NCBI GenBank assembly: GCA_015063855.1
Contig: SVTI01000002.1
Span: forward strand, 1 to 55,971
Direction of reading: 5' to 3'
Length of the DNA: 55,971 nucleotides
Origin: Oscillospiraceae bacterium
GTDB lineage: Bacteria > Bacillota > Clostridia > Oscillospirales > CAG-272
Shown here in pieces: positions 10,471 to 40,336 of the stretch (its first letter is position 1; each line of letters starts with the position of its first letter). The position numbers and the translations under genes were made by a program. Under the pieces are notes generated by a model. The model saw only the letters and a program-made list of their open reading frames with translations. It did no database searches and had not been told where the DNA came from.

Positions 10471-10488
10471 AACAAGGTGGTGAAGCGT

Positions 10489-11025
10489 ATGACGGATAGG
10501 GAAAAAATATTCAATCAGATTTACGATAAGACCTACAGAGGAGCTCTTATATATGTTACTGCTAAATGCTCCCATGTTCAGGACATTGAGGACATAATGC
10601 AGGAGATATATACCGAGCTGTATTCTGTGATAACAAGGAAGGGCGGGGAATATATTGCTTTTCCCGAGGCGTTTGTCCTTAAAATAGCAAAGCGCAAGGT
10701 ATACCTGCATTACACCTTGAAGGAACGCATACGCGGGGTATCTCTTAACAGCGAGGATGTATACGAAAGAGAGATGATCGATTCTATTCCCGATGATTTT
10801 GATATAGAGGATGATATTTGTACCAAGGATATGCTTGACGAGATAGGGCGGTATATCCTCTCCCGTTCTGAGATAACCGCAAAAATATTTATGCTCTATT
10901 ATCTGCTTGATCTTAAGATATCGGAAATTGCCGAGCAATTATCGGTCAGCGAATCTTACGTTAAGAATAAGCTTTACCGTACCATAAAGGAGCTTAAAGC
11001 ACGTTACGGAGGTGACTATAAATGA
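10489..11025 (+). CDS. sigma-70-family (ECF-like) RNA polymerase sigma factor, copy 1
   Basis: About 178 aa. Region 2-like DIEDIMQEIYTELY and region 4 HTH ISEIAEQLSVSESYVKNKLYRTIKELK. Start taken at ATG 10489 (MTDREK), matching the paralog N-terminus. Confidence 0.8.
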   Translation: MTDREKIFNQIYDKTYRGALIYVTAKCSHVQDIEDIMQEIYTELYSVITRKGGEYIAFPEAFVLKIAKRKVYLHYTLKERIRGVSLNSEDVYEREMIDSIPDDFDIEDDICTKDMLDEIGRYILSRSEITAKIFMLYYLLDLKISEIAEQLSVSESYVKNKLYRTIKELKARYGGDYK

Positions 11026-12758
11026 AGGGAAAGGAGATCATAAAAAGAGCCTTGGAGGGCAGTATTCCCGACAAGGAATCGCTTCGTCAGGAGTGTCTGT
11101 CCCAAAGAAAGAGGGCTGTATCGGTTAAGAGAGTGATGATCGCCGCAGCCTGTATCCTTCTGCTCTGTACAACCTTTGTCTTGATACCCCTTTTGAAAAA
11201 AGATAATAATAAAAAAGGTTTTGACGGTAATGAAGATATCATTCTTCAAAGTGAAGAACTTGAGAGCATAAGTGAAGATATCACCCCCGACACGCAGGAC
11301 GAATACTATGACCCGGGTGCTATCGGCGGCGGTGAGTCCTCTATATGTCCCATTCACAGCATTGAATATCACGCTATCCCGGGACTCCTTATAGATTATG
11401 TGGATGAACAGGCTTACGAGGAATGGAAGTCACAGCTCCGTGATGAGGAGGGCTGGTATATAAGGGATGAAAACGGATGCTACCCCGGCTTTAATATAGT
11501 TGAGTTCATCAACTCCTTCAACATTCCCGATGAGCTGATAATCGAGTGCTATCCCGGATATTACAACAGCAGCTCCGCCTATTGGAACCTTGATCTGCTC
11601 CTTTCAAGAGATGCAGAGGCATACGAGATATTTGCAAGAAAAACGTCGCTTACAAAGGAGGAAAAAAGGTTATATGAAGACAGAGAAAGGGATGGATCCT
11701 TCAAGCGCAGAGTTCTGGATCTGCTGAAGGAGAAAACCGACGAAGGATCTGTTGCCTATTATAATAAAATAACCTGTAACGGTACGAGGTATCTCCTTGA
11801 AGAGTTTTCTATCCTTGATATGGTGGAGAATTCCTCGCTTACCAAGGAGGATATCGAGTCGGCCTGCGGTGTTGACCGACGTACAGGTGTTCAGTCTGTC
11901 AACTTTGTATATAGATATACCTATAATATAGATCTTCTTTTTGAGGAGAAGGCGGCGCTATATGCTGAAATCGAAAAGCTTGAAGATATTCCGTACGTAC
12001 CGCGTGCAGCACAGATAGATGAGCTTTTGCATATAGGATATAACGGAGAGCTTGCCGTAAAGGGAGAAGCAATTGAAACCGAATACGGAATTTATATTCC
12101 GGAGGGCTTACTGCCGCAGAGCGATGAGGATCTTCCGCTTGAAAAGGATATGATACTATACAAAGGCAGAATATATTGGTATACTGCGACCGTAACCGAG
12201 AGTGAAGAGCATATTATCGATCATGTGAAAAGCACAATCCCGGTCGGTCATACTCACGGCGATATTGAAAAGGGTAAAACGAATTGGGATACGTACAGAT
12301 ATTATCATTTTGCTTCGTCTTCGGTTGGCGACGTTTATCTTCTTGATGACTATGACTCAAGCTTCAGAATAATGTTCAATAATTATTTCGGAGATCCCAA
12401 TACAATGAAGATCTACGAGGCTAACAAAGGACTTGTTCTGGATAAAGGAAGCGACCTGTACGGTGAAAAGGGTTTGAATCTTCAAAAGAATTCCGTTTCA
12501 CTTTCAGTGGGAGAGAAGCTTGCAGATGATTCCATGAAAGAAAGGTTAATTTTAGAGCTTCAGGAGGGTGATTTTGTTCTTGATAACAGTGATGTGTCTG
12601 TTTATCGAAGTATTTCATTAAAGATAAATCTGGACGATCTCTCAAACGTAACTCTTACACTTTACGAAAACGGGTACGTTGAATATTCCGAGATATCGGG
12701 GTATGGGGTATATCTCGAAATTGATAATACTGAGTTTGTGCAAGATTTTTTTGAATGA
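11022..12758 (+). CDS. anti-sigma-like single-pass membrane protein carrying the shared uncharacterised ectodomain plus an extra C-terminal region of about 230 aa
   Basis: ATGA overlap with the sigma gene. Cytoplasmic tail of about 35 aa and a TM helix (VMIAAACILLLCTTFVLIPLL). The ectodomain has the IGGGESSICPIHSIEYHAIP, GCYP and FNIPDELIIECY motifs shared with the proteins at 19995, 21770 and 24407. Confidence 0.7.
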   Translation: MKGKEIIKRALEGSIPDKESLRQECLSQRKRAVSVKRVMIAAACILLLCTTFVLIPLLKKDNNKKGFDGNEDIILQSEELESISEDITPDTQDEYYDPGAIGGGESSICPIHSIEYHAIPGLLIDYVDEQAYEEWKSQLRDEEGWYIRDENGCYPGFNIVEFINSFNIPDELIIECYPGYYNSSSAYWNLDLLLSRDAEAYEIFARKTSLTKEEKRLYEDRERDGSFKRRVLDLLKEKTDEGSVAYYNKITCNGTRYLLEEFSILDMVENSSLTKEDIESACGVDRRTGVQSVNFVYRYTYNIDLLFEEKAALYAEIEKLEDIPYVPRAAQIDELLHIGYNGELAVKGEAIETEYGIYIPEGLLPQSDEDLPLEKDMILYKGRIYWYTATVTESEEHIIDHVKSTIPVGHTHGDIEKGKTNWDTYRYYHFASSSVGDVYLLDDYDSSFRIMFNNYFGDPNTMKIYEANKGLVLDKGSDLYGEKGLNLQKNSVSLSVGEKLADDSMKERLILELQEGDFVLDNSDVSVYRSISLKINLDDLSNVTLTLYENGYVEYSEISGYGVYLEIDNTEFVQDFFE

Positions 12759-19656: not shown

Positions 19657-19953
19657 ATGGATTTTACACAACAAATATTTTGTGATAATCTAAGATTTCT
19701 AAAAAAAACAGAAGGCTTGGATAATAGGGAAATGTCTGAAATTTTAGGAGTTTCGGAGTCGGTTATAGATTATTTTATTAATGGAATTCTTCCTTACGAT
19801 ACACCAATATCGGTGTTGTACAATATTCATTTGAATTTCGGGGTTCCGCCGGATGCTATGATAGGAGACAGCGAGGATATTATTAAATGTTATATTGAGC
19901 GTTTCAAAAACGAAATATCTTGCTTTAATGAACATATAATCCCCTCAGGATAG
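19657..19953 (+). CDS. XRE-like HTH protein (98 aa)
   Basis: LRFLKKTEGLDNREMSEILGVSESVIDYFINGILP HTH-like segment. AAGGAG RBS. Confidence 0.65.
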   Translation: MDFTQQIFCDNLRFLKKTEGLDNREMSEILGVSESVIDYFINGILPYDTPISVLYNIHLNFGVPPDAMIGDSEDIIKCYIERFKNEISCFNEHIIPSG

Positions 19954-19980
19954 TTTTGAAGCTGTTCTGAGGGGATTATA
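19935..19980. terminator. long hairpin between convergent genes
   Basis: TATAATCCCCTCAG / CTGAGGGGATTATA 14-bp stem with an 18-nt loop. Confidence 0.5.
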
Positions 19981-19994
19981 TTAATCATTTGTTG

Positions 19995-21071
19995 TTAATA
20001 AGCTACATGGTCATCGCTCTTTTCTCCTACATGGAGCAGAGCATCTGCCATTTTAACCCTTGATTCATAGTAAGGAATCTCAAGATTATCTATCATCTTT
20101 GTTAGGGTCTCTGTATCTCCAAAGAGAAGATCAAGGTTGTATTCGAAACGCTGAATATCACCGTTTTCGTCCTTCTGGTTTGTCGGATTCAGAACCTCTG
20201 CAAATTCATTTTTAGTGATTGATGTGTTAATGACAATATCAATTATAGATACTTCACACCATGGAATTTTTGTGCCGTTATCTGATATACGGTTATAGTA
20301 TTCTATAGTTTTTGCATCTGTTTTTGTTTTTAGTATATCAAACAATCGCTCTTTCAAGTCGCGTTCATTATAAAGCTTTGTTCTGTATATGTTGTATTCC
20401 GGATTACTTCTTGATTCACGGGATATTTTATCGAAACTTTCTGCATCTCTTGCCAAGAGGCTTTCCATATCCCAGTCGCAGTTGTAGAAATCATTTTGAT
20501 ATGCTTCTATTATTACTTCGTCGGGAATATTAAAGTGTTCAACACATTTTAGAATGTCACCCTCAGGATAACAACCGTTTTTATCGCGGACAAGCGCTGT
20601 AGGGTCTACCCACTTCCTGAATTCCTCCTGACCTATATAATTGGTTATTATGCTCGGAAATGCATGGTAATAGTATGTGTGGATCGGGCACAACACATCC
20701 CCGCCACCAATAGGATCAGGCTCTTCATTGTTTGTAGCCGGTACATCTGTTATTTCTTCTGTGATGTTAGGCTCTGTTATATTGTTTGCGGATTCGACTG
20801 CAGGTGCTTTGTTTTCCGTAACTGAGGCTTCTTCTGTTTCAATTATGCTTATGGGTGTGTGCGGAATTTCGGGATCTTTGTGTTGTGACGGCTTGATTAC
20901 AGAGAATGCCGTTAGCAGAGAAAGGGAAAGCATAGTGATAAGGGTAGCGGCAAGCAGAAGGTTTTTTATTCTGCTTTTTGCGGTATTGTGTGCTATACAT
21001 ACAGAATATATTTTTTCTTTGTCGGGAACAAGAGGAGTCAATGCCGAGGATAAAATTTCGTTATGTGTCAT
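19995..21071 (-). CDS. anti-sigma-like single-pass membrane protein with the shared ectodomain (copy 2)
   Basis: ATGA overlap with the sigma gene at 21068. TM helix LLLAATLITMLSLSLLTAFSVI. Motifs IGGGDVLCPIHTYYYHAFP, GCYP, FNIPDEVIIEAY and ADALLHVGEKSDDHVAY. Confidence 0.7.
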   Translation of the reverse strand: MTHNEILSSALTPLVPDKEKIYSVCIAHNTAKSRIKNLLLAATLITMLSLSLLTAFSVIKPSQHKDPEIPHTPISIIETEEASVTENKAPAVESANNITEPNITEEITDVPATNNEEPDPIGGGDVLCPIHTYYYHAFPSIITNYIGQEEFRKWVDPTALVRDKNGCYPEGDILKCVEHFNIPDEVIIEAYQNDFYNCDWDMESLLARDAESFDKISRESRSNPEYNIYRTKLYNERDLKERLFDILKTKTDAKTIEYYNRISDNGTKIPWCEVSIIDIVINTSITKNEFAEVLNPTNQKDENGDIQRFEYNLDLLFGDTETLTKMIDNLEIPYYESRVKMADALLHVGEKSDDHVAY

Positions 21072-21604
21072 TGTTCTTCACCTCTATAGAGATTTTTGAT
21101 TTCTTTTAACGTGCGGTATAGCTTGTTTTTAACATAGGACTCATTGACGCACAGAAGGAGTGCTATTCTTGGTATGGTGAGATTATATGAATAGTAGAGC
21201 AGGAAAATTTTTTGTACGATCAAGGGCTTAGACAGAACGAAGGCTCGTATGGAATCCAAGGCTTCCTTGGTACATATAGCATCCTCTATTATCAGATCAT
21301 CCGGGATAAAATTGATAATTTCCGCATCATTTTCATTAGAAGTATTCAAGGATATACCCTGTATTTTTTCTTTAAGGGAATAATGCTTGTATATTTTGCG
21401 ATTGCTTATCTTGATAACAAGGCGTTCAGGTGCTTGGACATAATCGATTCCCTTGCGTAATAAAGTTCTGTACAGCTCTGTATAGGTTTCTTGCAATATA
21501 TCTTCGATGTCATGAATGTTGGAGCACTTTGATGTTATATGTATAAGGGTGTTTTTGTAGGTCTTATCATAAATATCATTAAAATAATTTGTAATATCTG
21601 ACAT
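21068..21604 (-). CDS. sigma-70-family (ECF-like) sigma factor, copy 2 (paralog of 10489..11025)
   Basis: N-terminus MSDITNYFNDIYDKTYKN aligns with MTDREKIFNQIYDKTYRG. The region 4 motif ESYVKNKLYRT is shared. Confidence 0.8.
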   Translation of the reverse strand: MSDITNYFNDIYDKTYKNTLIHITSKCSNIHDIEDILQETYTELYRTLLRKGIDYVQAPERLVIKISNRKIYKHYSLKEKIQGISLNTSNENDAEIINFIPDDLIIEDAICTKEALDSIRAFVLSKPLIVQKIFLLYYSYNLTIPRIALLLCVNESYVKNKLYRTLKEIKNLYRGEEQ

Positions 21605-21623
21605 GATCTCACCGCCTTCGTTA

Positions 21624-21655
21624 TATAAAGTGCCCCAAAATATGAAAAAGTTTCA
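21624..21655 (-). promoter_or_regulatory. ECF-type promoter candidate (TGAAAC-N16-GCACTTTA) upstream of sigma copy 2
   Basis: The minus strand reads CTGAAACTTTTTCATATTTTGGGGCACTTTATATAACGAAGGCGGTGAGATCATG. It is collinear with 10437-10491. Confidence 0.5.
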
Positions 21656-21721
21656 GTATAAAATTAAAATTTGTCTATAAGTATATGATATATCCGATAT
21701 CTGCAATAATCAAGTGTTATT

Positions 21722-21756
21722 AAAAAAAAGCACCTGCAGGTGTTATCTGCAGGTGC
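21722..21756 (-). terminator. rho-independent terminator of the lipoprotein gene
   Basis: Perfect GCACCTGCAG / CTGCAGGTGC stem followed on the minus strand by an 8-nt T-run. Confidence 0.8.
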
Positions 21757-21769
21757 TTTGGGATTTCTA

Positions 21770-22708
21770 TTAATAAGCTACATGGTCATTGCTCTTTTCT
21801 CCTACATGGAGCAGAGCATCTGCCATTTTGACCCTTGATTCGTATTCGGGGATGTCGAGGTTATTAATTGTATTTGTCATAACGCTTGCATCTCCGAAGA
21901 GAAGATCAAGGTTGTATTCGAAGTAGGGGGTAACAAAATCTTCTCTGTTGTTAGACGTAGCATCTCCAAGTGCGTTTATAAAGTCGTCTTTGGTTAGCGA
22001 AGTGTTTGATATCATATCATATAACGTTATTTCAGAACAAGGAAAATAAGATCCGTTGTTGGTTATAGTATTATAATAATCAACGGTTTTTTTATCTGTT
22101 TTTGTTTTCATGAAATCAAATAATCGAAATTTTAATGATTGTTCTGATGATAATTTTGCAGAAGAATTGGTGGTAATGGAGTTTCTTGCATATCGTTCAA
22201 ATGCTTCGTGATCTCTTTCAAGCAGTGCCTTTATATCCCAGTCCCGATTATAATAATCATTCTGATATGCTTCGATTATTATTTCGTCGGGAACATCAAA
22301 ATATTCTATACAAAGAAGGATATTTCCGTTTGGCCAACAGCCTTCTTCATTGGTTGTAGAATGAGCTTCATTCGACCATTTACGAAAATGTTCTTCTCCT
22401 ATATAATCTTTGATTTCTTTAGGATAACAGTGGTATCCAAAGTTATGAACTTCACATATGCCCGTACCGCCTATTGGCTTAGGATCATTGTTAGTGTCAG
22501 TAGTACCGGGAGTGGGTATCACTTCTTCGGTAATATCAATTTCCGTTTCTGAATCGGGCAAATCGGTGTCTGCGATGTATGAAGTATCCGAACTTTCGGG
22601 TATGTTTACATATTCGTCAGTTTCTTTTTGTGAGCTTTCAGGCTTTGAACAGGATATAAAAGTCGTTAAAACTGAACAAACCAAAAATATTATCAAAGTA
22701 TTTTTCAT
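21770..22708 (-). CDS. lipoprotein consisting only of the shared ectodomain (copy 3, no sigma partner)
   Basis: Signal peptide with a lipobox (TTFISC). The domain is identical over about 180 aa to the ectodomain of 24407..25633. The AGGAGG RBS lies inside the last codons of the upstream M23 gene. Confidence 0.75.
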   Translation of the reverse strand: MKNTLIIFLVCSVLTTFISCSKPESSQKETDEYVNIPESSDTSYIADTDLPDSETEIDITEEVIPTPGTTDTNNDPKPIGGTGICEVHNFGYHCYPKEIKDYIGEEHFRKWSNEAHSTTNEEGCWPNGNILLCIEYFDVPDEIIIEAYQNDYYNRDWDIKALLERDHEAFERYARNSITTNSSAKLSSEQSLKFRLFDFMKTKTDKKTVDYYNTITNNGSYFPCSEITLYDMISNTSLTKDDFINALGDATSNNREDFVTPYFEYNLDLLFGDASVMTNTINNLDIPEYESRVKMADALLHVGEKSNDHVAY

Positions 22709-22710
22709 AA

Positions 22711-24150
22711 TTAACCTCCTACGGGATTTCCGTTGTAATCATAGTCGTGATATGGGGATTGGTATCTTATAAAAGCCAAAGGATCCATATATTCTCTGCT
22801 TGACAGACCATAATCGTCTGTGTTCGATATCGAGAAATGTAAATGATATCCATAGTTAGCGCCGGTATTTCCGACGGTTCCAATTCGCTGTTCTTGCTGC
22901 ACATCAACACCGACATTCACCAATATTGAATTTAAATGCTGATAAATCATAAAGTAGAATTTATCCTTACTATTGTCTTCAGGATCATCATGATAACACG
23001 TCTCTATTTGTATTAAATTCCCACAGGAGCCATATTCATCCGCCATTTTGACTTTTCCTGATGAAACACTATATACCGAAGTCCCTATTGTTCTTGCGAT
23101 ATCTATACCTTGATGATATTCAAGCTGGCTTGCGGTACCGTACCTCCAACCAAAATTTCGGCATTGATTCAAATAATTACGGGTGTTTGTCCATTCCGTC
23201 ATATTGTTGAATCCTGCAATCGGTAAGCTATACCCACCGCCGGTGCCAAGAGCCATTTCGATCGTATTAATGAAGTTGTTACGAGTAAGTGTAGTATTGG
23301 TCAGGCCTTGTCTGTAATTTATGGCAAAGGCATTAGCGGCAAATGCCAGATTGCTTGATGTAGACAAACAAGCTATACCGTAAGTGTTTGTTTTTATAGG
23401 CTGTTCGGGATATTTATCAGCCGGAGCATTTGTGTTTTCGAAATAAATATACACGGTCGCATTTGCAATAGGCGCTCCGCTTGTTGAACGTACATAGAAC
23501 AATATTTCATTTCCGGGGTACTTGTTTATAGCATACATTTTTGAAAGCATTGTTGCACCGCTTGATCTGTCAATGGTACCTGTCGGATCGAAGCTGCCAT
23601 TAGGTTTACCGGTGATTATTTCGGCCTTTGCCAAGGTCATTACAGCAGTCTGAGACCATGAGGCTATTGAAGACTGATCGGTAAAGCTAATATTGGGCTT
23701 GGTTACCGGTATCGTGGCATTGGTTACGTTTAACGCACGGTATACCAAGGTGGCGAATTCCTGACGCGTTATCACCGTGTCGGGACTGAAGAGACCGTTG
23801 CCGGTTCCGTTGGTTATGTTATTATCATATGCCCATTTAATGCTACCCGAGTAATCGGATGAATAGGGAACGTCGGAAAACGGGGTGTCTGCATATTTCG
23901 GAACATTGATGTCAAGCATTCTTCTTATTCCGTCAACCGCTATATCTCTTCTCAATCCGCCGTAAGGGTAAAAGAGGTTGGATTGAGAGTAAAATGCTCC
24001 GTGGTAATAACAAAAGCAAATACTGTCCTCTGCCCAAAAGTTTTCGGGCAGGTCGGTGAATCTGCTGTCTGCGCTTGAGCTGAAGGTCAATACCGCTGAG
24101 AATAAAGCGGTAAAAACAATAACTGCAAATAATATTTTAACTTTCTTCAT
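22711..24150 (-). CDS. secreted SLH-domain M23 (LytM-type) metallopeptidase
   Basis: Signal peptide. SLH repeats (FTDLPENFWAEDS..., FSDVPYSSDYSGSIKWAYDNNITNGTGNGLFSP...). M23 catalytic motifs HQGIDIA (HxxxD) and GYHLHFS (HxH). Confidence 0.85.
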   Translation of the reverse strand: MKKVKILFAVIVFTALFSAVLTFSSSADSRFTDLPENFWAEDSICFCYYHGAFYSQSNLFYPYGGLRRDIAVDGIRRMLDINVPKYADTPFSDVPYSSDYSGSIKWAYDNNITNGTGNGLFSPDTVITRQEFATLVYRALNVTNATIPVTKPNISFTDQSSIASWSQTAVMTLAKAEIITGKPNGSFDPTGTIDRSSGATMLSKMYAINKYPGNEILFYVRSTSGAPIANATVYIYFENTNAPADKYPEQPIKTNTYGIACLSTSSNLAFAANAFAINYRQGLTNTTLTRNNFINTIEMALGTGGGYSLPIAGFNNMTEWTNTRNYLNQCRNFGWRYGTASQLEYHQGIDIARTIGTSVYSVSSGKVKMADEYGSCGNLIQIETCYHDDPEDNSKDKFYFMIYQHLNSILVNVGVDVQQEQRIGTVGNTGANYGYHLHFSISNTDDYGLSSREYMDPLAFIRYQSPYHDYDYNGNPVGG

Positions 24151-24303
24151 TTTCTTCTCCTTTCGAGGTTGTTAAAGTTAATGGTTCTTAAACTTAACGG
24201 ATGAATATACTTCGGAAGGTTTATTGATTTGAAGCTGAAGCTCAAATCGATATTATATTTTCATAACGATTTCCCCCTTTAAAGAGGTTGAATTATTTAC
24301 CTC

Positions 24304-24345
24304 TTCATTACAGTAATGTCACCCAAAACACAAAATAGCAGGTTT
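24304..24345 (-). promoter_or_regulatory. conserved 43-nt motif upstream of the SLH-M23 gene, shared with the sigma copy 3 upstream region
   Basis: 36 of 43 nt are identical to 26231-26273 in the same orientation. It sits just downstream (minus sense) of terminator 24367-24397. Confidence 0.5.
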
Positions 24346-24366
24346 TATATGAAAAAAAAGTAAAAA

Positions 24367-24397
24367 AATCTCATCCCGATTTTTTTGGGATGAGATT
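24367..24397 (-). terminator. rho-independent terminator of the sigma/anti-sigma copy 3 operon
   Basis: AATCTCATCCC / GGGATGAGATT 11-bp stem followed on the minus strand by TTTTTTTAC. Confidence 0.75.
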
Positions 24398-24406
24398 TTA
24401 ATTTAC

Positions 24407-25633
24407 TTACTCCGCTATATGCAATAAGGCATCTGCCATTTTAACCCTTGATTCATAGTAAGGAATCTCAAGATTATCTATCATCTTTGTTAGGGTCTCT
24501 GTATCTCCAAAGAGAAGATCAAGGTTGTATTCGAAGTAGGGGGTAACAAAATCTTCTCTGTTGTTAGACGTAGCATCTCCAAGTGCGTTTATAAAGTCGT
24601 CTTTGGTTAGCGAAGTGTTTGATATCATATCATATAACGTTATTTCAGAACAAGGAAAATAAGATCCGTTGTTGGTTATAGTATTATAATAATCAACGGT
24701 TTTTTTATCTGTTTTTGTTTTCATGAAATCAAATAATCGAAATTTTAATGATTGTTCTGATGATAATTTTGCAGAAGAATTGGTGGTAATGGAGTTTCTT
24801 GCATATCGTTCAAATGCTTCGTGATCTCTTTCAAGCAGTGCCTTTATATCCCAGTCCCGATTATAATAATCATTCTGATATGCTTCGATTATTATTTCGT
24901 CGGGAACATCAAAATATTCTATACAAAGAAGGATATTTCCGTTTGGCCAACAGCCTTCTTCATTGGTTGTAGAATGAGCTTCATTCGACCATTTACGAAA
25001 ATGTTCTTCTCCTATATAATCTTTGATTTCTTTAGGATAACAGTGGTATCCGAAGTTATGAACCTCACAGATACCGGTTCCGCCTATTGGCTTAGGATCA
25101 TCATTGCTTGTAACCGGTACATCGGTTATTGGTTCTGTAATATACGGTTCTGTTATAATGTTTTCTTCTGTTATAATACTATCTGTTTCGTTATTTAATG
25201 TATTGGAGTCGGTACTTGGAGCGTCGGTATCGGGAGACGGTTCCTTTTTTGTAATATCAATTGGGTCTATCGGAATATCTGTATTTTTATCCGAGGTATT
25301 TAACACCGAAAGGGTAGATACCGTTAATGCACTCATCATTACAAGAACTGCGGCTATAAGTAATACACGTTTAAGGGTAATTGACTTTGATTTTTTATTA
25401 TTTATTATATTTCTTGCATTTTTCTCCGCCTCCTTATCAAGTGTGGTTATGTCTTCACCATTTAATATGAGAAGTGCTTCTACCGCTTCGTCTATAAGCT
25501 CGTAATTTCTGTATTCATAGGGGAGAGACTCTTCTTTACTTAATATCTCTTCTATCGCCTCGGTAAGCTCGGCATCGTTACCTACAGGCTTTTTTTCTTC
25601 ATATTCACTGAGCTTCTGCTCAAGTTCGCTCAT
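24407..25633 (-). CDS. anti-sigma-like single-pass membrane protein with the shared ectodomain (copy 4, mosaic)
   Basis: Acidic cytoplasmic N-terminus of about 90 aa, unrelated to copies 1 and 2. TM helix VLLIAAVLVMMSALTVSTLSVL. The ectodomain is identical to the lipoprotein 21770..22708. The C-terminal tail is identical to 19995..21071. Confidence 0.75.
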   Translation of the reverse strand: MSELEQKLSEYEEKKPVGNDAELTEAIEEILSKEESLPYEYRNYELIDEAVEALLILNGEDITTLDKEAEKNARNIINNKKSKSITLKRVLLIAAVLVMMSALTVSTLSVLNTSDKNTDIPIDPIDITKKEPSPDTDAPSTDSNTLNNETDSIITEENIITEPYITEPITDVPVTSNDDPKPIGGTGICEVHNFGYHCYPKEIKDYIGEEHFRKWSNEAHSTTNEEGCWPNGNILLCIEYFDVPDEIIIEAYQNDYYNRDWDIKALLERDHEAFERYARNSITTNSSAKLSSEQSLKFRLFDFMKTKTDKKTVDYYNTITNNGSYFPCSEITLYDMISNTSLTKDDFINALGDATSNNREDFVTPYFEYNLDLLFGDTETLTKMIDNLEIPYYESRVKMADALLHIAE

Positions 25634-25650
25634 TTTTGAATGCTCCTTAT

Positions 25651-26160
25651 TTAATCGTTTATGATACTCCTGACGGCATTTTCGACCTTTGCTAATCTTA
25701 GCCGCAGTGTGGAATAGGGGATATGTTTTATATCCGCTATTTCCTTTAGTGTTTTTTCTTCTATATATCTAAGGACAAAAAGCTCTTTTAGATCTTTCGT
25801 AAGCATATCGGCTATTTCATCCATTCGTTTTTCAATATTCTTTACGAAATACTCATCAACACTACTTGCCTCGGATAATTCACCTCTTTCCTTTGTTTCC
25901 TCAAGGGAAAGGGTCCGGGCGTAATAACGGTTGTGTTTTCGCAGAGAATTTTTTATGCACATATCCGCCACGCGGTACAGATAGGCTCTCAGACTCTCAC
26001 CCCGCTCAACCTTGTCCCATTTTTCGTATAGAATACGGAAAATATCGTTTTGAGTTTCTTCGGTCAATTCCTTGTTACAGCGGAGCTTGAGATAACAGTA
26101 TCTGTACAGCGGCTTTGAATACTGCATGACTATCGCTTCATATTCTTTGATGTCAAACAT
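25651..26160 (-). CDS. ECF-type sigma-70-family sigma factor, copy 3 (a different lineage from copies 1 and 2)
   Basis: Region 2 (YRYCYLKL..., DIFRILYEKW) and region 4 HTH (LKEIADIKHIPYSTLRLRLAKV). AGAGGT RBS. Confidence 0.85.
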   Translation of the reverse strand: MFDIKEYEAIVMQYSKPLYRYCYLKLRCNKELTEETQNDIFRILYEKWDKVERGESLRAYLYRVADMCIKNSLRKHNRYYARTLSLEETKERGELSEASSVDEYFVKNIEKRMDEIADMLTKDLKELFVLRYIEEKTLKEIADIKHIPYSTLRLRLAKVENAVRSIIND

Positions 26161-26230
26161 TTCTTTACCTCTGTATTATGGCCATAATAACAGTTTACCT
26201 CGAAAGAAGGAGTATGTCAATCCCCTTGCC

Positions 26231-26274
26231 TTCATAACAGTAATGTCGCGGAAAACGTAAAATAGCAGCTTTTT
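26231..26274 (-). promoter_or_regulatory. conserved 43-nt motif upstream of sigma copy 3 (see 24304-24345)
   Basis: TTCATAACAGTAATGTCGCGGAAAACGTAAAATAGCAGCTTTT on plus, about 70 nt upstream of the sigma start codon. Confidence 0.5.
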
Positions 26275-26285
26275 GATAAAAAATA

Positions 26286-26314
26286 TTGAAAGATTTTTTG
26301 AAATATGATAAAAT
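26286..26314 (+). promoter_or_regulatory. sigma-70-type promoter candidate for the SLH gene pair
   Basis: TTGAAA, a 17-nt spacer, then TGaTAAAAT. Confidence 0.5.
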
Positions 26315-26343
26315 TAATCTATAAAAGCTGTTTGGAGGCAAAA

Positions 26344-28467
26344 ATGAAAAGATTTATTAGTGTTATGATATCTATTGTCATGCTTGTTTCGATGATACCC
26401 TTCTCGGTATCTGCCGAGACGGTACTTTCCTATACCGACATAGGTGACGGCAGAGCCAGACTGGATTCGGTAGAGATAGTTGAGGGCGTGGCTAAGTGTG
26501 ATGTGAAGCTTGAGGGACTCACGGTGGTTGAGCTTGGTGAAGAGATATGTGCCTATACCTCTGTCAAGAGTGTTGAGCTTCCCGATACCCTTGAGCGAAT
26601 AGGTTATTCTGCCTTTATAGGCTGTGATTCTCTCGAATCTGTAGAGATCCCCTTGACGGTGAAATTTATCGAGACCTTTGCCTTTACCGAGTGCTACTCT
26701 CTTAAGAGTATAGTCATCCCCGAGACGGTAGAATATCTCGGAGAGTGGGCATTTGATTTCGAAGACATTGAGGTTAAGGTGTACAAGGACAGCTATGCAG
26801 AAAAATACTGTATAGAAAATAACTATCCCTATATCCTTGCAGACGAGGGCTGCTCTCATAAGAATACCGAGAACGTAACTGCAGAATACGCAACCTGTAC
26901 ATATAGCGGCGAGGCTGCCGAGAGATGTACCGATTGCGGTAAGCTGACAGAGAGAACCGAGCTTTCGCCTCTCGGTCATGATCTTGCGGCATGGAGCGTG
27001 GACAAAGACGGCAGATGCCGTGAATGTAAGCGCTGCGGTAACGTTTTTACCGATTTTGAAAGAAGCTATGGTGAGATGCCCTTTACTGATATCAAGGCAG
27101 GAAGCTGGTACTATGATTCTGTAGGCTTTTGCTATGCAAATTCTCTTGTAAACGGAACAACAGCCACTACCTTCGATCCCGATACCAACACCACCAGAGC
27201 AATGGTGGTACAGATCCTTTCAAAGTATGCGGGTGCAGACCTTACAAGCTATAAGGAAAGCGGATTCAAGGACGTTAAGATTTCCTCATGGTACGGTCCC
27301 GCAGTAGCATGGGCGAAGGAAAGCGGAGTTGTAAACGGTAATGACAAGGGTGAATTCATGCCTGATGTTAACGTAAACCGTGAACAGCTTACCGTTATTA
27401 TGAAGAATTTTGCCGATTACATGGGTTATGGCTATCCCGAAAGTGATGTTGACATTACAAAGGCATTTTCTGACGGAAATAAGACCGCATCCTGGGCAAA
27501 AACAGCTATGGAATGGGCAGTTTCTCTTGAGATCGTCAACGGTGTTGGCGGCGGCAAGCTCAACCCCAAGGGTCTTGCGGGAAGGAATCAGATAGTTAAG
27601 ATAATCAAGTATTTTGCCGATATCTTTGAGCTGGAGACAGTTTACGGCTACGACAGAGTGGTTGTATTTATGATAGACGGAGCGGGCGATTTCTTTAAGG
27701 ATGCCAACACCTCCAATATAGACAGGATATTCGATCTCGGCGTTACCTCCAAGGCAAAGGAGCCCGTTAACTGTATGAGCGAGAGAGCCTCTATACTTAC
27801 GGGTACCGATCCTTCGGTTCACTCTCTCTATCACAGAGAGGATGCGGCAAGGGATGTTTATAATGAGCGTAATGCCGTCAAGACCTTCCTCGGTGAGGTC
27901 AAAGAAGCATATCCCGACAAGGAGGTTGCCTGCTTTGCATCGAGCCTCGAGATATCTCAGCTTGTCGAGGAGGAGGGCGGTGTTTATGCGCCTGTTGATG
28001 AAAGCTATGTGGACGACGGTATAACCGAAATGCTTGTAAAGGATGGGGGTTATCTTGACACCAATGATCCATCCTTACTGCTTGTTGAGATGCGTCAGGT
28101 GCTTCAGGGCGGTGTTCACTTCGAAGGCGGTTTTGGAAGCCGCGACTACATGATGCAGCTTTCTCTTACCGACGGTTACATTGGCAGAATATATAATAAG
28201 TATGAAGAATTGGGCAGAAACGAGAATACTCTCTATATCCTCACCACCGATCACGGCGGAGTTGTCGGCGGTACCTCCTACGCGGGTTCAAGCGAGGATG
28301 AGATAAATTCCTTCTTTGCCATAGGCGGTAAGGGCGTAAATAAGAACGCAGATCTTACAGGCTTCTGCAATACCGATGTTTACGGAATAATTCTTGACGT
28401 TTTCGGCATTGACAGACCTTACACTTCGGTATCTGAAAAATACAATGATCTTTTTATCGGTGAATAA
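26344..28467 (+). CDS. secreted multidomain protein: BspA-type leucine-rich repeats, Cys-rich linker, 3 SLH repeats and an alkaline-phosphatase-superfamily (sulfatase/phosphodiesterase-like) domain
   Basis: Start at ATG 26344 (MKRFISVMISIVMLVSMIPFSVSA). LRR_5-like repeats (IGYSAFIGCDSLESVEIP...). SLH motifs (FTDIKAGSWYYDS, FKDVKISSWYGPAV, FSDGNKTASWAKTA). C-terminal FMIDGAGD, CMSERASILTG and TTDHGG. Confidence 0.75.
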   Translation: MKRFISVMISIVMLVSMIPFSVSAETVLSYTDIGDGRARLDSVEIVEGVAKCDVKLEGLTVVELGEEICAYTSVKSVELPDTLERIGYSAFIGCDSLESVEIPLTVKFIETFAFTECYSLKSIVIPETVEYLGEWAFDFEDIEVKVYKDSYAEKYCIENNYPYILADEGCSHKNTENVTAEYATCTYSGEAAERCTDCGKLTERTELSPLGHDLAAWSVDKDGRCRECKRCGNVFTDFERSYGEMPFTDIKAGSWYYDSVGFCYANSLVNGTTATTFDPDTNTTRAMVVQILSKYAGADLTSYKESGFKDVKISSWYGPAVAWAKESGVVNGNDKGEFMPDVNVNREQLTVIMKNFADYMGYGYPESDVDITKAFSDGNKTASWAKTAMEWAVSLEIVNGVGGGKLNPKGLAGRNQIVKIIKYFADIFELETVYGYDRVVVFMIDGAGDFFKDANTSNIDRIFDLGVTSKAKEPVNCMSERASILTGTDPSVHSLYHREDAARDVYNERNAVKTFLGEVKEAYPDKEVACFASSLEISQLVEEEGGVYAPVDESYVDDGITEMLVKDGGYLDTNDPSLLLVEMRQVLQGGVHFEGGFGSRDYMMQLSLTDGYIGRIYNKYEELGRNENTLYILTTDHGGVVGGTSYAGSSEDEINSFFAIGGKGVNKNADLTGFCNTDVYGIILDVFGIDRPYTSVSEKYNDLFIGE

Positions 28468-28469
28468 TA

Positions 28470-31094
28470 ATGAAAAGAGTTTTATCAATACTTTTATGTA
28501 CATTAATGCTTTTACCCTTATCGGTAAATGCGCTTAATATAGGTGAAATACAAAGTCAGACGGCTTATTCAGAACTTGAGCTCTATGAGGGTGTGACCCA
28601 TACCCATATCGCTACAGACTCAACGTCCCGCTATAAGACTCAGAATTTTAATGTTATCGAGTTTGACCCCTCAAACGAAAATCTTTATATCGACGTTACC
28701 GGCGGCGGGGACTATGCCAATAAGCTTTCGAGAACCAGCGATACCGTGGCTAAGTTTGCCAAAGCCAATCCCGACAAGGAGCCTATAGCGGCTATCAACG
28801 GTGACCTCTGGATGGTGGCTTATGCCCACGCGAGAATAGAGGGTAAGGGTACAAATTATAACGGATATACAGATGCGGTGGTTAAGAAGGAGCAGACCTT
28901 ACCTCGCGGTTTCAATATGTATAACGGAGAAATAATAACCTCTGATTATATGCTTCAGGAGACACCCTACGAGGGACAGTTCTGGGCATTCGGTACTACA
29001 GCCGATAATCAGGTGGCTATAGGCTGTCCCAAGCTTGATATCACTCTCGATTCGGTGAAGGCGGACGGACTTAACCGTCTTCCCGCAAACAACGCACTTG
29101 TTGTTTATACCGACAAGGGCTGTCTTAATACCTACGCTCTTGACGATGCGGTGGAGCTTCTTGTAAAAACCGACGGTTACACCGTTAAGCACGGAACCGA
29201 GATTAAGGGTGAGATAATAGGTATCTATGATGAATTTTCCGATTCAGACCCCAAAATGGCAGAGGATCATATCATTCTTTGTGCAAGGGGTACTGCCGTG
29301 GAAAAGGTGAACGGCTATAAGGTAGGTGATACTATATCCCTTAGCTTTGAGGTATACGAGAAATTCGGTCGTGACACGGAGCTTTGGCAAAATATGACCA
29401 ATTGTGTGGGAGGACATACGCCCTTCGTTATCGACGGTGTCAAGAACGAAAGCGGTACCACCACGGGCTATCCTACTACTATTGTCGGTATTAAGAATGA
29501 CGGTAACGTGGTTTTCCTTGTAAATGACGGAAGACAGAGCGGCTTTAGTAACGGTCTTAATTTCAACAGATATTGGGATATAGCGGACGAGCTTGACCTT
29601 AACACCGCCTTTATCCTTGACGGTGGCGGCTCATCCACCATGGTGCTGGCAGATGAGGGTGAATATAAGGTGGTTAACAGCCCCTGCGATACCGGTAATG
29701 CCGAGAGAACTGTTGTAAACTCTGTGATCCTTTCCTCAGGCAAGGCTCATAAGACTGCGAAGAATACACCCGAGATCCCTTCGGAGTATATAGAGTTCGG
29801 TGCAGTACATTATGCGGCAAGCGATGTGAGATGCCTTATTCCCGATGCATCTCAGCTTAATGTCAAAACTACTAAAGAGGGAATAGATTTTACGGTTGAG
29901 GAGCTTTACAGCGATCCCGCCGTTACCTTGAGCTTCGGACTTCCCAACACAAGACTTGATAACCCCGATTCAAGTGTTTCGCATGATTATCCTTACGTGG
30001 ATCTTTCCGAATATAAATATGCTATTATCGACATGAAACTCGATCACAAGGATACAAGTCCGTATATGTTCCAGGCGGTATATGCTACCACGGGTACACA
30101 GACGGGTATAGACGGCAATGCCTTTGTAGGATTCATCAATGCGATAAATGACGGACAGTATCATACATATATTATAGATCTTTCCGCCTTTTCGGGTAAG
30201 CTTAACACCCTTCGTCTTTGCTTTATGTCTGTCAACGGAACAAAGGTCAATGAAGGGGATGTGATATCTGTCCACTCGATCAGACTTGCAAGCAGTGCAA
30301 GCGAGGCAAACACCTTGGCTCAAAGGGGTCATTACAAGACCTATACCATCGATTTCTACGATCAGAACAACAACCATATCGGCTCAAAGCAGGTGGTTGG
30401 CGGCAGAAAATATATGGATTTCCCAAAGGTTGACACCGAGGGATATATAGTTGACGGTTGGTGCTTCGACGACGGTGAGGCGGTTTGTGAGAGCGACGTT
30501 GTAAATCTTTACGAGGATACAGCGATATATCTAAAGGCTAAAACTCCCTTTACTGATGTACCCACGGGAAAATGGTTTACCGATCCTGTCGTTAAAGCGG
30601 CAGGTAAGGGATTTTTTAAGGGTAATGATAAGGGCATGTTCCTTCCCAATGATGCCCTTACCCGTGAGCAGTTCGTTGTGGTGCTTGCAAGAATGGCAGG
30701 GGCAGACCTTTCGGGGTATGAGGGGATATCTCCCTTCAGCGACGTTAAGGCGGGTCAGTGGTATTCTTCTGCCATAGCATGGGCAAGCGCAGAGGGATAC
30801 GTTAAGGGTATCGGTAACGGCAGGTTCGGTCTCGGTGTCAAAATAAGCCGTGAACAGCTGGCACAGCTCTTCTTCAACTATGCAGAGGGTAATGGTATAG
30901 ATACCGATATGAGGATCCAGCTCGGTGTATTCAATGATGCAAATGCGGTATCGGGCTGGGCAAGGGAAGCAGTTTCCTGGGCGGTGGCCTTCGGACTTAT
31001 AAACGGTACGTCCGATACAACTGTATCCCCCCTTATGATCGCTACAAGGAGTCAGGCCGCCAAGATCTGCGTAAGCTTTGACGTATATCTTTGA
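28470..31094 (+). CDS. secreted phosphodiester glycosidase (NAGPA/DUF2233-like) with 3 C-terminal SLH repeats
   Basis: AAINGDLW and ILDGGGSSTMV motifs of the phosphodiester glycosidase family. C-terminal FTDVPTGKWFTDPV, FSDVKAGQWYSSAIAWA and FNDANAVSGWAREAVSWA. Confidence 0.75.
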   Translation: MKRVLSILLCTLMLLPLSVNALNIGEIQSQTAYSELELYEGVTHTHIATDSTSRYKTQNFNVIEFDPSNENLYIDVTGGGDYANKLSRTSDTVAKFAKANPDKEPIAAINGDLWMVAYAHARIEGKGTNYNGYTDAVVKKEQTLPRGFNMYNGEIITSDYMLQETPYEGQFWAFGTTADNQVAIGCPKLDITLDSVKADGLNRLPANNALVVYTDKGCLNTYALDDAVELLVKTDGYTVKHGTEIKGEIIGIYDEFSDSDPKMAEDHIILCARGTAVEKVNGYKVGDTISLSFEVYEKFGRDTELWQNMTNCVGGHTPFVIDGVKNESGTTTGYPTTIVGIKNDGNVVFLVNDGRQSGFSNGLNFNRYWDIADELDLNTAFILDGGGSSTMVLADEGEYKVVNSPCDTGNAERTVVNSVILSSGKAHKTAKNTPEIPSEYIEFGAVHYAASDVRCLIPDASQLNVKTTKEGIDFTVEELYSDPAVTLSFGLPNTRLDNPDSSVSHDYPYVDLSEYKYAIIDMKLDHKDTSPYMFQAVYATTGTQTGIDGNAFVGFINAINDGQYHTYIIDLSAFSGKLNTLRLCFMSVNGTKVNEGDVISVHSIRLASSASEANTLAQRGHYKTYTIDFYDQNNNHIGSKQVVGGRKYMDFPKVDTEGYIVDGWCFDDGEAVCESDVVNLYEDTAIYLKAKTPFTDVPTGKWFTDPVVKAAGKGFFKGNDKGMFLPNDALTREQFVVVLARMAGADLSGYEGISPFSDVKAGQWYSSAIAWASAEGYVKGIGNGRFGLGVKISREQLAQLFFNYAEGNGIDTDMRIQLGVFNDANAVSGWAREAVSWAVAFGLINGTSDTTVSPLMIATRSQAAKICVSFDVYL

Positions 31095-31100
31095 AAAGGG

Positions 31101-31129
31101 TTGATTTATTGAACAAAATCTGCTATAAT
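31101..31129 (+). promoter_or_regulatory. sigma-70-type promoter candidate for the SLH-kinase gene
   Basis: TTGATT, a 17-nt spacer, then TATAAT. Confidence 0.5.
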
Positions 31130-31168
31130 AGATCATTATAGTTAAAAATATCAGTATCAGAGGTTTTT

Positions 31169-33172
31169 ATGGGAATTGAAAGAATAAGCGAATTCTGGCC
31201 TGAATGGAAGATAGAAGGCTGTGTAGGAGAGGGTACCTACGGTAAGGTGTATAAGGTCTTTAAGGATGATCCCAATATGAAGTCTTATTCTGCCGTAAAG
31301 GTTATATCCTTGCCCGATTCTGCGGCAGAGCTTGAGTCCCTTCGTGCCAAGGGCATGGACTCGGATGCCATCAAAGCTTATTATGAAAGAATAATACATA
31401 AGTACATAAATGATCTTAAGGTGTTGGAGAGCTTGAAGGGCCATGCAAATATCCTTTCTGTCGAAGGCTGTAATGTGATAGAAAAAAATGACAGCGCAGG
31501 ATGGGAGATATTCGTACGCACCGAGCTTCTTGAACCCTTTAAGGATTATACACAGCGTCATCCTCTTGATGAAAAGGAAATGATCCGTATGGCTATCGAT
31601 GTCAGCCGTGCTCTTGAGGAATTTCATAATAACGGACTTATTCACCGTGATATCAAGCCTGCGAATATTTTTGTTACGGCAAACGGAGATTTTAAGCTTG
31701 GTGATCCGGGCATGGAAAAGGAGATCGATAAATCTCTCGACGGTCCGTGTTACTATTTGGCTCCCGAGCTTGTACACGGCAAGGACTATGATTCTACCGT
31801 TGATATTTATTCTCTCGGTCTTGTTATGTACAGCATGCTTAATGCCAACCGTCCTCCCTTTGTCAGAGAGGCTGTTCCTTCTCTTAACGAAAGAAGAACG
31901 GCGGAAAGCAGACGTCTCGGAGGCGAGGAGCTGATCCCTCCCACAGAGGCTACTCCCGAGCTTGCGAAAATAGTTCTCTGTGCCTGCAGCTTTGATGCGA
32001 AGCACAGATTTAAGAATCCCACCGAATTTAAAAATGCACTTGAAAACTTTTTGAATCCACCGCCTAAGGTAGCGGCCGTGCCTAAGCCCGAGCCTACCGT
32101 TCCTCCTAAGAATATCGTTCCGATAAGCGATGCGGAGGCGGAGAAGATCATCAAAAAATTCAAAAGAAAGAAAAAATCGGGTAAGGGTCCCTTGATACTC
32201 TTGATTATACTTCTTATAGCGGTTCTGGGTGCTGCTTCGGTATTTACCGTTCTGGCACTTCTCGATAATAAGGATGATAAATCAAAGGTCGAGGAGAAGG
32301 AGCCTGTAGACGAGATAATCGATATCACAGAGGCGGAAGAGACAGAGCCTTCTGTCATCATTCCTAAGGATTCAGAGACTCAAGACGACGAGGAGAAGGA
32401 TAACGAGGCATTTGTCATACCCTGCAGCGACGGTACCTCTGCTCACATACCTCAAGAGGAGTGGGTAGTTATGAACGAGCCTACCTATCTTGAAGAGGGA
32501 CGTAGAGTTAAGCTGTGCAGTCAGTGTGACAAGATAGCTGTAGACGAGCCTATTCCCGTTCTTGAATATGAGGGATTCTCGGATGTTCCAAAGGATGCAT
32601 GGTATGCAACCGCTGTTGAGCATTGCGTGGTTCAGGGTTATTTTTCGGGCTATAGTGACGGAAGCTTTAAGCCTGACGATGTTCTCACAAGAGAGGCATT
32701 TGCCACTATTCTGGCAAGAGCCTCAGGTGCAGAGCTAGATTCCTATACCGATGTTATTTTTGAAGATGTTAAATCGGGCGATTGGTTTATGAGCTCGGTG
32801 CTCTGGGCGGCTGATATGGGTTATATGACAGGAGTCGGAGACGGTACAAGCTTCGGAGTCGGTAAGGCGGTAAATCGTCAGGAGATAGCCGTGATCTTCC
32901 ACAGATACGCTGTTTCTGTTGGTGTTACCGTTGAGAAGGATATAAACCTTGAGGATTATTCGGATCACGAGAGTATAGCTGATTGGGCTAAGGATTCGGT
33001 AAGTTGGGCGATATCCTACGGACTTCTCGGTTCTACGTCCACAGATATACCTACCTTCTCTCCCGAAAAAACGGTAACGAGAGCTCAGGCGGCACAGATA
33101 TTCAAGAATTTCAATAATTTTACCGTAACAAATAAAACGGAAGAAATTACAGAAGAAAATACAGAAGAATAA
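31169..33172 (+). CDS. Hanks-type Ser/Thr kinase, single-pass, with a Cys-rich linker and triple-SLH extracellular domain
   Basis: N-terminus MGIERISEFWPEWKIEG is paralogous to the 296 kinase. GEGTYGKVYKV, AVKV and HRDIKPANIF are present. GDPG replaces GDFG. TM helix GPLILLIILLIAVLGAASVFTVLALL. Three SLH repeats (FSDVPKDAWYATAV, FEDVKSGDWFMSSV, YSDHESIADWAKDSV). Confidence 0.85.
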   Translation: MGIERISEFWPEWKIEGCVGEGTYGKVYKVFKDDPNMKSYSAVKVISLPDSAAELESLRAKGMDSDAIKAYYERIIHKYINDLKVLESLKGHANILSVEGCNVIEKNDSAGWEIFVRTELLEPFKDYTQRHPLDEKEMIRMAIDVSRALEEFHNNGLIHRDIKPANIFVTANGDFKLGDPGMEKEIDKSLDGPCYYLAPELVHGKDYDSTVDIYSLGLVMYSMLNANRPPFVREAVPSLNERRTAESRRLGGEELIPPTEATPELAKIVLCACSFDAKHRFKNPTEFKNALENFLNPPPKVAAVPKPEPTVPPKNIVPISDAEAEKIIKKFKRKKKSGKGPLILLIILLIAVLGAASVFTVLALLDNKDDKSKVEEKEPVDEIIDITEAEETEPSVIIPKDSETQDDEEKDNEAFVIPCSDGTSAHIPQEEWVVMNEPTYLEEGRRVKLCSQCDKIAVDEPIPVLEYEGFSDVPKDAWYATAVEHCVVQGYFSGYSDGSFKPDDVLTREAFATILARASGAELDSYTDVIFEDVKSGDWFMSSVLWAADMGYMTGVGDGTSFGVGKAVNRQEIAVIFHRYAVSVGVTVEKDINLEDYSDHESIADWAKDSVSWAISYGLLGSTSTDIPTFSPEKTVTRAQAAQIFKNFNNFTVTNKTEEITEENTEE

Positions 33173-40118: not shown

Positions 40119-40144
40119 CAGCTGTTACAAAAGCATGTAAAAAA

Positions 40145-40336
40145 GCGGGCGCCGACCCGCACCGATGATCGGGCATGAACTACGTCAAAACCTCTAACTT
40201 CAATACCCGAAACGGAGCAATTTCCTATATATTTAAAAAAGTGGGCGCCGGCCCGCACCGATGATCGGGCATGAACTACGTCAAAACCTCTAACTTCAAT
40301 GCCCGAAACGGAGCAATTTCCTATATATTAAAAAAG
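40145..40336. repeat. tandem direct repeat, 2 x 96 bp, each unit containing two hairpins
   Basis: Units 40145-40240 and 40241-40336 differ at 5 of 96 positions. Read on the minus strand, each unit ends in a GC-rich hairpin followed by TTTTTT. Confidence 0.9.

Follow-up and report, generated by a model that had tools for sequence, protein, structure and literature searches.

We examine here a 43-nucleotide (nt) motif that occurs twice in a 55,971-nt stretch of DNA from an Oscillospiraceae bacterium (GenBank assembly GCA_015063855.1, contig SVTI01000002.1, positions 1 to 55,971; hereafter the window), once upstream of a gene for an extracytoplasmic function (ECF)-type sigma factor with its putative anti-sigma partner, and once upstream of an operon for an SLH-anchored M23 peptidase and a lipoprotein. 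The two copies are most probably promoters recognised by RNA polymerase when it carries the product of the sigma gene at 25651-26160 (sigma 3, the third ECF-like sigma factor of the window), which would direct both its own operon and the M23 operon. Sequence and comparison with relatives provide the motif, its fixed geometry, its recurrence at loci of the same sigma family, its orientation and its co-variation with the sigma factor. A first-pass annotation made from the letters of the window had proposed such an autoregulated ECF promoter with an M23 target operon, and the comparative evidence strongly supports it: the pairing recurs at two related loci, L017 and L028, and in a related form at L029.

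Copy 1 spans 24304-24346 and copy 2 spans 26231-26273, in the same orientation, and they agree at 36 of 43 positions (84%). The first-pass annotation had described this pair correctly and its sequences are present as quoted, save that it ended copy 1 one base short, at 24345. On the coding strand copy 1 reads AAAACCTGCTATTTTGTGTTTTGGGTGACATTACTGTAATGAAG and copy 2 reads AAAAGCTGCTATTTTACGTTTTCCGCGACATTACTGTTATGAAG; given the size and composition of the window, about 5e-6 pairs this alike are expected by chance. Read on the minus strand, both copies contain CTGCTA, TTTT, 13 further spacer bases and CATTAC, that is, a two-part element with a 17-nt spacer. The seven mismatches between the copies lie before CTGCTA (one base), in the spacer (five) and after CATTAC (one), sparing all 16 positions of the -35 hexamer, the T-tract and the -10 hexamer (P = 0.028 for seven mismatches placed at random among 43 positions). 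Outside the 43 nt the sequence is unrelated between the two copies, and no longer repeat encloses them in the window. A search of the window for further copies, which the first-pass annotation had called for genome-wide, found no third copy, and each half of the motif also occurs at these two places only. The pattern CTGCTA-N15-19-CRTTAC likewise has two matches in the window against 0.06 expected, and none of 100 shuffled windows contained at least two. The annotation had also allowed for a dispersed repeat at many non-promoter sites; the window scan returned two intergenic sites only.

In copy 2, predicted to be the autoregulatory promoter of sigma 3 on the minus strand, the -35 box CTGCTA occupies 26263-26268, the T-tract 26259-26262 and the -10 box CATTAC 26240-26245, and transcription would start near 26233. 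In copy 1, the predicted sigma-3-dependent promoter of the SLH-M23 operon on the same strand, the corresponding elements lie at 24336-24341, 24332-24335 and 24313-24318, with a probable start near 24306. The element CTGCTA-N17-CATTAC lies 79 nt before the sigma gene and 162 nt before the M23/lipoprotein operon; measured from the edge of the motif to the start codon, the distances are 70 nt for the sigma gene (26160) and 153 nt for the M23 gene (24150), in line with the roughly 70 and 155 nt of the first-pass annotation. Its placement of one copy directly after the sigma/anti-sigma terminator also holds, since copy 1 starts about 19 nt past the intrinsic terminator at 24365-24399 that follows the anti-sigma gene, and the A-rich tract it saw beside each copy corresponds to A/T-rich tracts flanking both. 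Copy 2 sits in a divergent intergenic region, in which the SLH/LRR/phosphodiesterase gene running in the other direction (plus strand) has a promoter-like site of its own at 26286-26314.

Relatives of sigma 3 are rare: a word-indexed search gave eight clusters, and a profile search of 1.84 billion representatives gave 40 clusters (at 50% identity) at E <= 1e-30, against 21,245 general ECF-like matches at E <= 1e-3. DNA was fetched around every reachable sigma homolog, together with eight more from species-representative genomes; the sources are metagenome-assembled genomes of uncultured Clostridia or Eubacteriales from animal guts, one of them labelled Roseburia. Upstream of the sigma homologs at five of these loci (L015, L016, L017, L022 and L026) stands AAACCTGCTA, then TTTT, then C(G/A)TTAC, which gives a family element C(T/C)GCTA-N17-C(G/A)TTAC; the spacer is exactly 17 nt in every match to the CTGCTA-N15-19-CRTTAC pattern. 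In a locus survey with position 2 free to be C or T and one mismatch tolerated, every one of the 13 non-redundant sigma-family loci (13/13) had at least one site. Sites lie upstream of the sigma gene or operon at seven loci, between sigma and anti-sigma genes at seven and upstream of a neighbouring operon at six, and all are intergenic and point to the downstream gene, except one at 10785 in L025, a probable false positive. On this comparative evidence the sigma gene has a conserved predicted promoter of its own, as in autoregulated ECF sigma factors, at the window and six further loci (L015, L016, L017, L026, L028 and L029), and in the orthologous locus L015 the same element stands in the same place as copy 2. 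The non-redundant loci, roughly 200 kilobases (kb) in all, contain 13 exact sites where 0.03 would be expected, and 23 sites with one mismatch where 2.5 would be expected. Moreover, a weight matrix trained on 19 sites, all outside the window, scores copy 2 at 39.0 bits and copy 1 at 26.8 bits, with 2.6 for the third-best window site; the best scores in 20 shuffled windows average 4.3 and reach at most 14.7. A T-tract beside the -35 box, counted as at least three T in four positions, is found at 17 of 21 sites.

The association of the sigma family, the motif and envelope proteins, M23 peptidases included, is not peculiar to the window, because it recurs at several loci. For example, L017 has sites before the sigma gene (4495), before the anti-sigma gene (5167) and before the next operon (6178), which encodes an ABC-2-like membrane protein, a 473-residue SLH protein and one further protein, and L028 has a similar arrangement, with sites at 7888 and 9431 and with SLH proteins and an ABC-2-like membrane protein downstream. 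At L029 a single site precedes a gene for a PcsB-like M23 peptidase, followed by the sigma and anti-sigma genes, and at L023 a site precedes a gene for a secreted C39-like peptidase. L061 encodes a homolog of the lipoprotein (53% identity) with CCGCTA-N17-CATTAG ending 24 nt before its start codon; no sigma gene of the family is adjacent to it. The arrangement in the window itself is reproducible, with 17 contigs from assemblies of other samples bearing an identical sigma gene and motif, and four independent assemblies containing the junction of anti-sigma 3' end, terminator, copy 1 and M23 gene. A scan of metagenome contigs for CTGCTATTTT-N13-CATTACTG gave 25 matches, none with the flanking features and none from the organism studied here, in a collection that does not contain the species of the window.

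Variants of the motif agree within a locus and differ between loci. The window has CTGCTA/CATTAC twice, L017 has CGTTAC three times, L028 CCGCTA/CGTTAA twice, L027 CCGCTA/CATTAC twice and L025 CCGATA/CATTACATATATGA twice. These variants follow residues of the sigma factors: among sigma factors whose coding sequence is intact, all eight with a Cys two residues past LYRVAD in region 2.4 go with CATTAC (8/8); all four with Glu at that position go with CGTTA(C/A), a -10 box confined to the P0005-P0007 and L028 clades. In region 4.2, the two sigma factors with PYASL(Y/H)LR in place of PYS(T/S)LRLR both go with a GATA rather than a GCTA core in the -35 box.

Taken as a mechanism, the element would comprise a -35 box CTGCTA with an adjoining T-tract, a 17-nt spacer and a -10 box CATTAC, and transcription would probably begin close to ATGAAG, a few bases further downstream. 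Until an envelope signal reaches its extracytoplasmic domain, the membrane anti-sigma factor presumably keeps the sigma factor inactive; the signal would free the sigma factor from its membrane partner, and the holoenzyme would then initiate at both CTGCTA-N17-CATTAC sites. Initiation at copy 2 would raise sigma and anti-sigma together, a positive autoregulation with built-in negative feedback and hence a self-limiting loop, lying on top of a basal housekeeping-type promoter, and initiation at copy 1 would induce the SLH-anchored M23 endopeptidase and the lipoprotein. Such targets, predicted envelope proteins, are as expected for the ECF class.

Several points weigh against sigma-3-dependent promoters. 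Their support comes from sequence and comparison, and the co-variation between motif and sigma factor, drawn from few and non-independent lineages, is supportive rather than decisive. In ECF promoters the -35 box typically contains AAC and the -10 box CGT (PMC5758882), features that are typical and not strictly defining; the -35 box of the window copies has no AAC, and their -10 box has CAT instead of the common CGT. The operons that correspond to the M23-lipoprotein operon in L060 and L063 have no clear -35 box, which shows that the link to this operon does not hold everywhere. The motif scan of this genome covered the window, which makes the regulon count a minimum, and a second paralog of the family, P0007, from the same samples, could in principle cross-recognise the sites.

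The first-pass annotation had offered a shared promoter or operator as a single reading, and the two halves fare differently. An operator for a separate dimeric DNA-binding regulator that co-controls both units would account for the perfect 6-1-6 palindrome CATTAC-T-GTAATG in copy 1, for the palindrome CACCTCAT-N8-ATGAGGTG at sigma/anti-sigma intergenic sites of L023, L024 and L027, and for conservation that runs beyond the -10 box to ATGA(A/G)G. However, the palindrome of copy 1 is imperfect in copy 2 and absent in L015, the conserved parts are two asymmetric hexamers 17 nt apart that always face the downstream gene, the sigma/anti-sigma pair are the sole regulator genes common to the loci, and motif variants track the sigma sequence. 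Because two hexamers are conserved at a fixed distance, with their 17-nt spacer at all family loci, and the 6-1-6 palindrome is not conserved, the element is most probably a promoter, not an operator; we rejected the palindrome reading on this ground and regard a separate regulator as improbable. An even less probable account takes both copies as ordinary housekeeping (sigma-A) promoters that are alike by chance. The motif does overlap good TTGAC(A/G)-16-TAT(T/A)AT matches in L017, L022 and L026, and the upstream A/T-rich tracts resemble UP elements, but the resemblance of the window copies to the sigma-A hexamers is poor (TTTACG or TTTGTG with TATGAA or TAATGA at 18-19 nt). Better candidates for sigma-A-type promoters stand apart from the motif and downstream of it, one at 26192-26220 and one with TATAAT at 24252-24257. 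This account was rejected since L016 and the second L017 site have no TTGACA or TATAAT match yet keep CTGCTA and CGTTAC.

The first-pass annotation's own alternative was that insertion or duplication of the 1.93-kb sigma/anti-sigma cassette had left the copies behind as direct repeats; on this account they would have no regulatory role of their own. The copies do flank the cassette, with a like geometry in L017 (1683 nt apart) and L028 (1543 nt apart); the locus has undergone a recent duplication or gene conversion of about 700 nt at 99% identity, 2613 nt apart; the two spacers in the window are alike at 11 of 17 positions, more than orthologous spacers are, which fits one promoter copied from the other; and L060, which has no cassette, keeps just the -10-proximal half of the motif upstream of its M23 gene. 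On the other side, the mismatches spare the functional boxes, and the unrelated flanks, the lack of an integrase or transposase in the cassette and a repeat spacing of 1927 nt, out of register with the 2613-nt duplication, also speak against it; with repeats only 84% identical and no mobility gene, the arrangement does not resemble a mobile cassette bounded by direct repeats. Elsewhere the copies do not bound a cassette: L017 has a third copy inside it, those of L027 and L025 bound other genes, and the single copy of L029 precedes an operon of M23, sigma and anti-sigma genes. None of the 17 contigs of the species shows a cassette-free variant, a weak point given that most of them break at the 700-nt repeat. 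Comparison with relatives that lack the cassette, suggested by the first-pass annotation, could be made with L060 and L063, which at 58-59% protein identity are too divergent to serve as empty-site controls. We consider a scar without regulatory role very unlikely; a duplicative origin of one promoter from the other is possible and compatible with promoter function.

Both units probably have basal promoters in addition to the predicted sigma-3-dependent ones. Between copy 2 and the sigma gene lies a housekeeping-type (sigma-A-like) promoter, TTGACA-17-TAAACT (26192-26220, minus strand), which is kept in L015 as TTGACT-17-TAAACT followed by GTTATTATGGCC and probably supplies basal sigma expression. 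In the M23 leader, the block GGGGGAAATCGTTATGAAAATATAATA (24251-24277, minus strand), kept upstream of the M23 ortholog in L060, contains a perfect TATAAT at 24252-24257 that may be the -10 box of a housekeeping promoter, and it probably supplies basal expression there. An RNA element in this leader is unlikely, because Rfam models run over 19800-26600 gave sub-threshold matches on terminators only and the 162-nt leader folds no better than shuffled sequences (z = -1.5).

All relevant genes are on the minus strand, where genes and signals follow one another, 5' to 3', as A/T tract, copy 2, housekeeping-type promoter, sigma 3, membrane protein, terminator, copy 1, leader, M23 gene, lipoprotein gene and terminator. 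Sigma 3 (25651-26160, 169 residues) is by domain content an ECF (group 4) member of the sigma-70 family: it consists of regions 2 and 4 (Pfam Sigma70_r2 at residues 11-78, Sigma70_r4_2 at 113-157), without regions 1 and 3, and scores 53.7 bits against the ECF superfamily model TIGR02937 (cutoff 42.9). No NCBIfam equivalog reaches its cutoff for sigma 3 (best 25-56 bits against cutoffs of 126-265 bits), and it falls below every curated equivalog cutoff for the named families SigW, SigM, SigV, SigX, SigY, SigZ, BldN, RpoE and others; its best relative of solved structure is SigW (5wuq). The putative cognate anti-sigma factor (24407-25633, minus strand, 408 residues) starts 17 nt after the sigma stop codon and comprises a cytoplasmic N-terminal domain (about 65 residues), a single transmembrane helix and an extracytoplasmic domain (about 230 residues) that contains Cys and His. 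The N-terminal domain of about 65 residues, followed by a transmembrane helix, is kept in the partner genes of all family loci, and the extracytoplasmic part varies between them. No Pfam or NCBIfam model, known anti-sigma domains included, matches this protein, and its anti-sigma role is suggested by context. The operon ends in the intrinsic terminator at 24365-24399 (minus strand), a 15-base-pair (bp) stem followed by a T-run.

The M23 gene (22711-24150, minus strand) encodes a 479-residue SLH-anchored peptidoglycan metallopeptidase (Pfam SLH and Peptidase_M23, E = 2.5e-21), whose translation has both catalytic zinc-binding motifs, HQGID for HxxxD and HLH for HxH, as in catalytically active LytM-type peptidases, and activity is predicted. 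The ATG of the 312-residue lipoprotein gene (21770-22708, minus strand) follows the M23 stop codon with no gap, and the operon ends in an intrinsic terminator at 21727-21759 (minus strand; 13-bp stem, then T-run), beyond which lies a second, unrelated sigma/anti-sigma pair (21604-19995). Further ECF-like sigma genes of the window, sigma copies 1 and 2, are at 10477-11025 on the plus strand and 21068-21604 on the minus strand; each precedes a gene for a large protein without family assignment (spans 10477-12758 and 19995-21604), and neither pattern scan nor weight matrix found the motif at either of them.

The most unusual feature of the locus is that the target operon encodes a near-identical copy of the sensor domain of the anti-sigma factor. 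Positions 21802-22500 and 24415-25113 are about 99% identical over about 700 nt, 2613 nt apart (repeat families D1 and D2), and the repeated stretch encodes the extracytoplasmic domain in the anti-sigma factor (24407-25633) and the C-terminal domain in the lipoprotein (21770-22708). At its very end, over some 35 residues, the anti-sigma factor matches instead the second anti-sigma-like protein (19995-21071), itself a carrier of this sensor domain, a pattern suggestive of mosaic gene conversion. Among the Cys and His residues of the domain, C85, H88, H93, C124 and C133 are invariant; it has seven database homologs and no family assignment, and its structure model is all-helical with a mean pLDDT (predicted local distance difference test) of 53.6, too poor for a fold search. 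We put forward, tentatively and as a possibility that is more doubtful than probable, a joint reading in which a compact, unplaced ECF lineage of uncultured gut or rumen Clostridia uses a promoter without AAC (C(T/C)GCTA, T-tract, N13, C(A/G)TTAC), and in which the lipoprotein is a free copy of the sensor, kept by gene conversion, that might act as a decoy or co-receptor, providing feedback on signalling coupled to the SLH-anchored M23 wall peptidase.

The layout of an autoregulated sigma factor with an adjacent target operon is textbook; the novelty is a sigma family that is unplaced among the named ECF families and a -35 box without AAC. As in the autoregulated ECF modules of Firmicutes (SigW-RsiW, SigV-RsiV and SigM of Bacillus subtilis, and RpoE1 of Thermoanaerobacter tengcongensis, Tt-RpoE1), the sigma factor of the locus has two domains (regions 2 and 4), the gene downstream of it encodes a partner that crosses the membrane once, and a bipartite promoter, its spacer 16-17 nt long, stands before the sigma operon itself and before envelope-related targets. 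Also in common are a T-tract by the -35 box, which is a described feature of ECF promoters (PMC5758882), and a housekeeping-type promoter alongside. The locus differs from these modules in its -35 box, here C(T/C)GCTA without AAC, and its -10 box, C(A/G)TTAC rather than CGTC or CGTA; the Tt-RpoE1 promoter, for example, is tGTTAC-N16-CGTC (PMC3397946). Unlike the named modules, moreover, sigma 3 reaches no NCBIfam equivalog and belongs to a small family, and the N-terminus of its anti-sigma factor matches no Pfam anti-sigma domain.

A different parallel is offered by the SigI/RsgI systems. There, the sensor module outside the cell has homologs among the modules of the secreted proteins that the system regulates; the sensor domain common to anti-sigma 3 and the lipoprotein of its target operon is a parallel. 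Further similarities to SigI/RsgI of cellulolytic clostridia (PMC6056542) are several paralogous sigma/anti-sigma pairs per genome, autoregulation and a three-part anti-sigma factor. Unlike SigI, sigma 3 is matched by ECF models, and its region 4 is of the ordinary kind (Sigma70_r4_2); SigI/RsgI models are absent from the Pfam and NCBIfam matches of sigma 3 and its partner. The promoter sequence also differs, and in place of glycoside hydrolases the predicted targets comprise a cell-wall peptidase and a lipoprotein.

The motif provides a testable promoter consensus and a first, minimal predicted regulon for an uncharacterised sigma/anti-sigma family confined, as far as databases show, to uncultured Clostridia of animal guts, and it could be used for regulon prediction in complete genomes of these organisms. 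The proposed circuit would tie envelope signalling to a cell-wall endopeptidase, and the duplicated sensor domain suggests how that domain might work.

Some smaller features accompany the motif. The conserved ATGAAG just after the -10 box would open tiny open reading frames, MKR-stop at copy 1 (24301-24312), one of 19 codons at copy 2 (26230-26241) and MKATT-stop in L015 (about 228-245); speculatively, these would be leaderless if transcription begins at or near that A. A device absent from the window occurs in L023, L024, L025, L027, L030 and L011, where, downstream of the motif in the sigma/anti-sigma intergenic region, a strong ribosome-binding site GAGGTGAT and a mini-ORF (open reading frame) of two codons immediately precede the anti-sigma start codon. 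The mini-ORF, read at all of these loci except L011, is ATG ACA TAG/TAA, or ATG ATA TAG in L025. The device often lies inside the palindrome CACCTCAT-N8-ATGAGGTG; it may serve translational coupling or attenuation. The sigma gene of L030 (8001-8530) seems frameshifted after about residue 75, as a pseudogene or through an assembly error, and the motif downstream of it is intact.

In L060 (4989-5563) and L063 (6414-7001), both Ruminococcaceae-like and without a sigma cassette, the lipoprotein homolog follows VWA and Glucodextran_B-like genes; the M23 gene is present in L060 and absent in L063. L060 retains CATTAA-TGTAATGAGG and the TATAAT block, without a CYGCTA box, and the two loci have at most the -10-proximal half of the motif. 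Divergent from sigma 3 in the window, 26344-33172 is a run of SLH surface-protein genes, encoding LRR_5 with SLH and a phosphodiesterase, NAGPA with SLH, and a Ser/Thr protein kinase with SLH. Farther along, the intergenic sequence at 40135-40326 consists of a 96-nt unit in tandem duplication at 96% identity.

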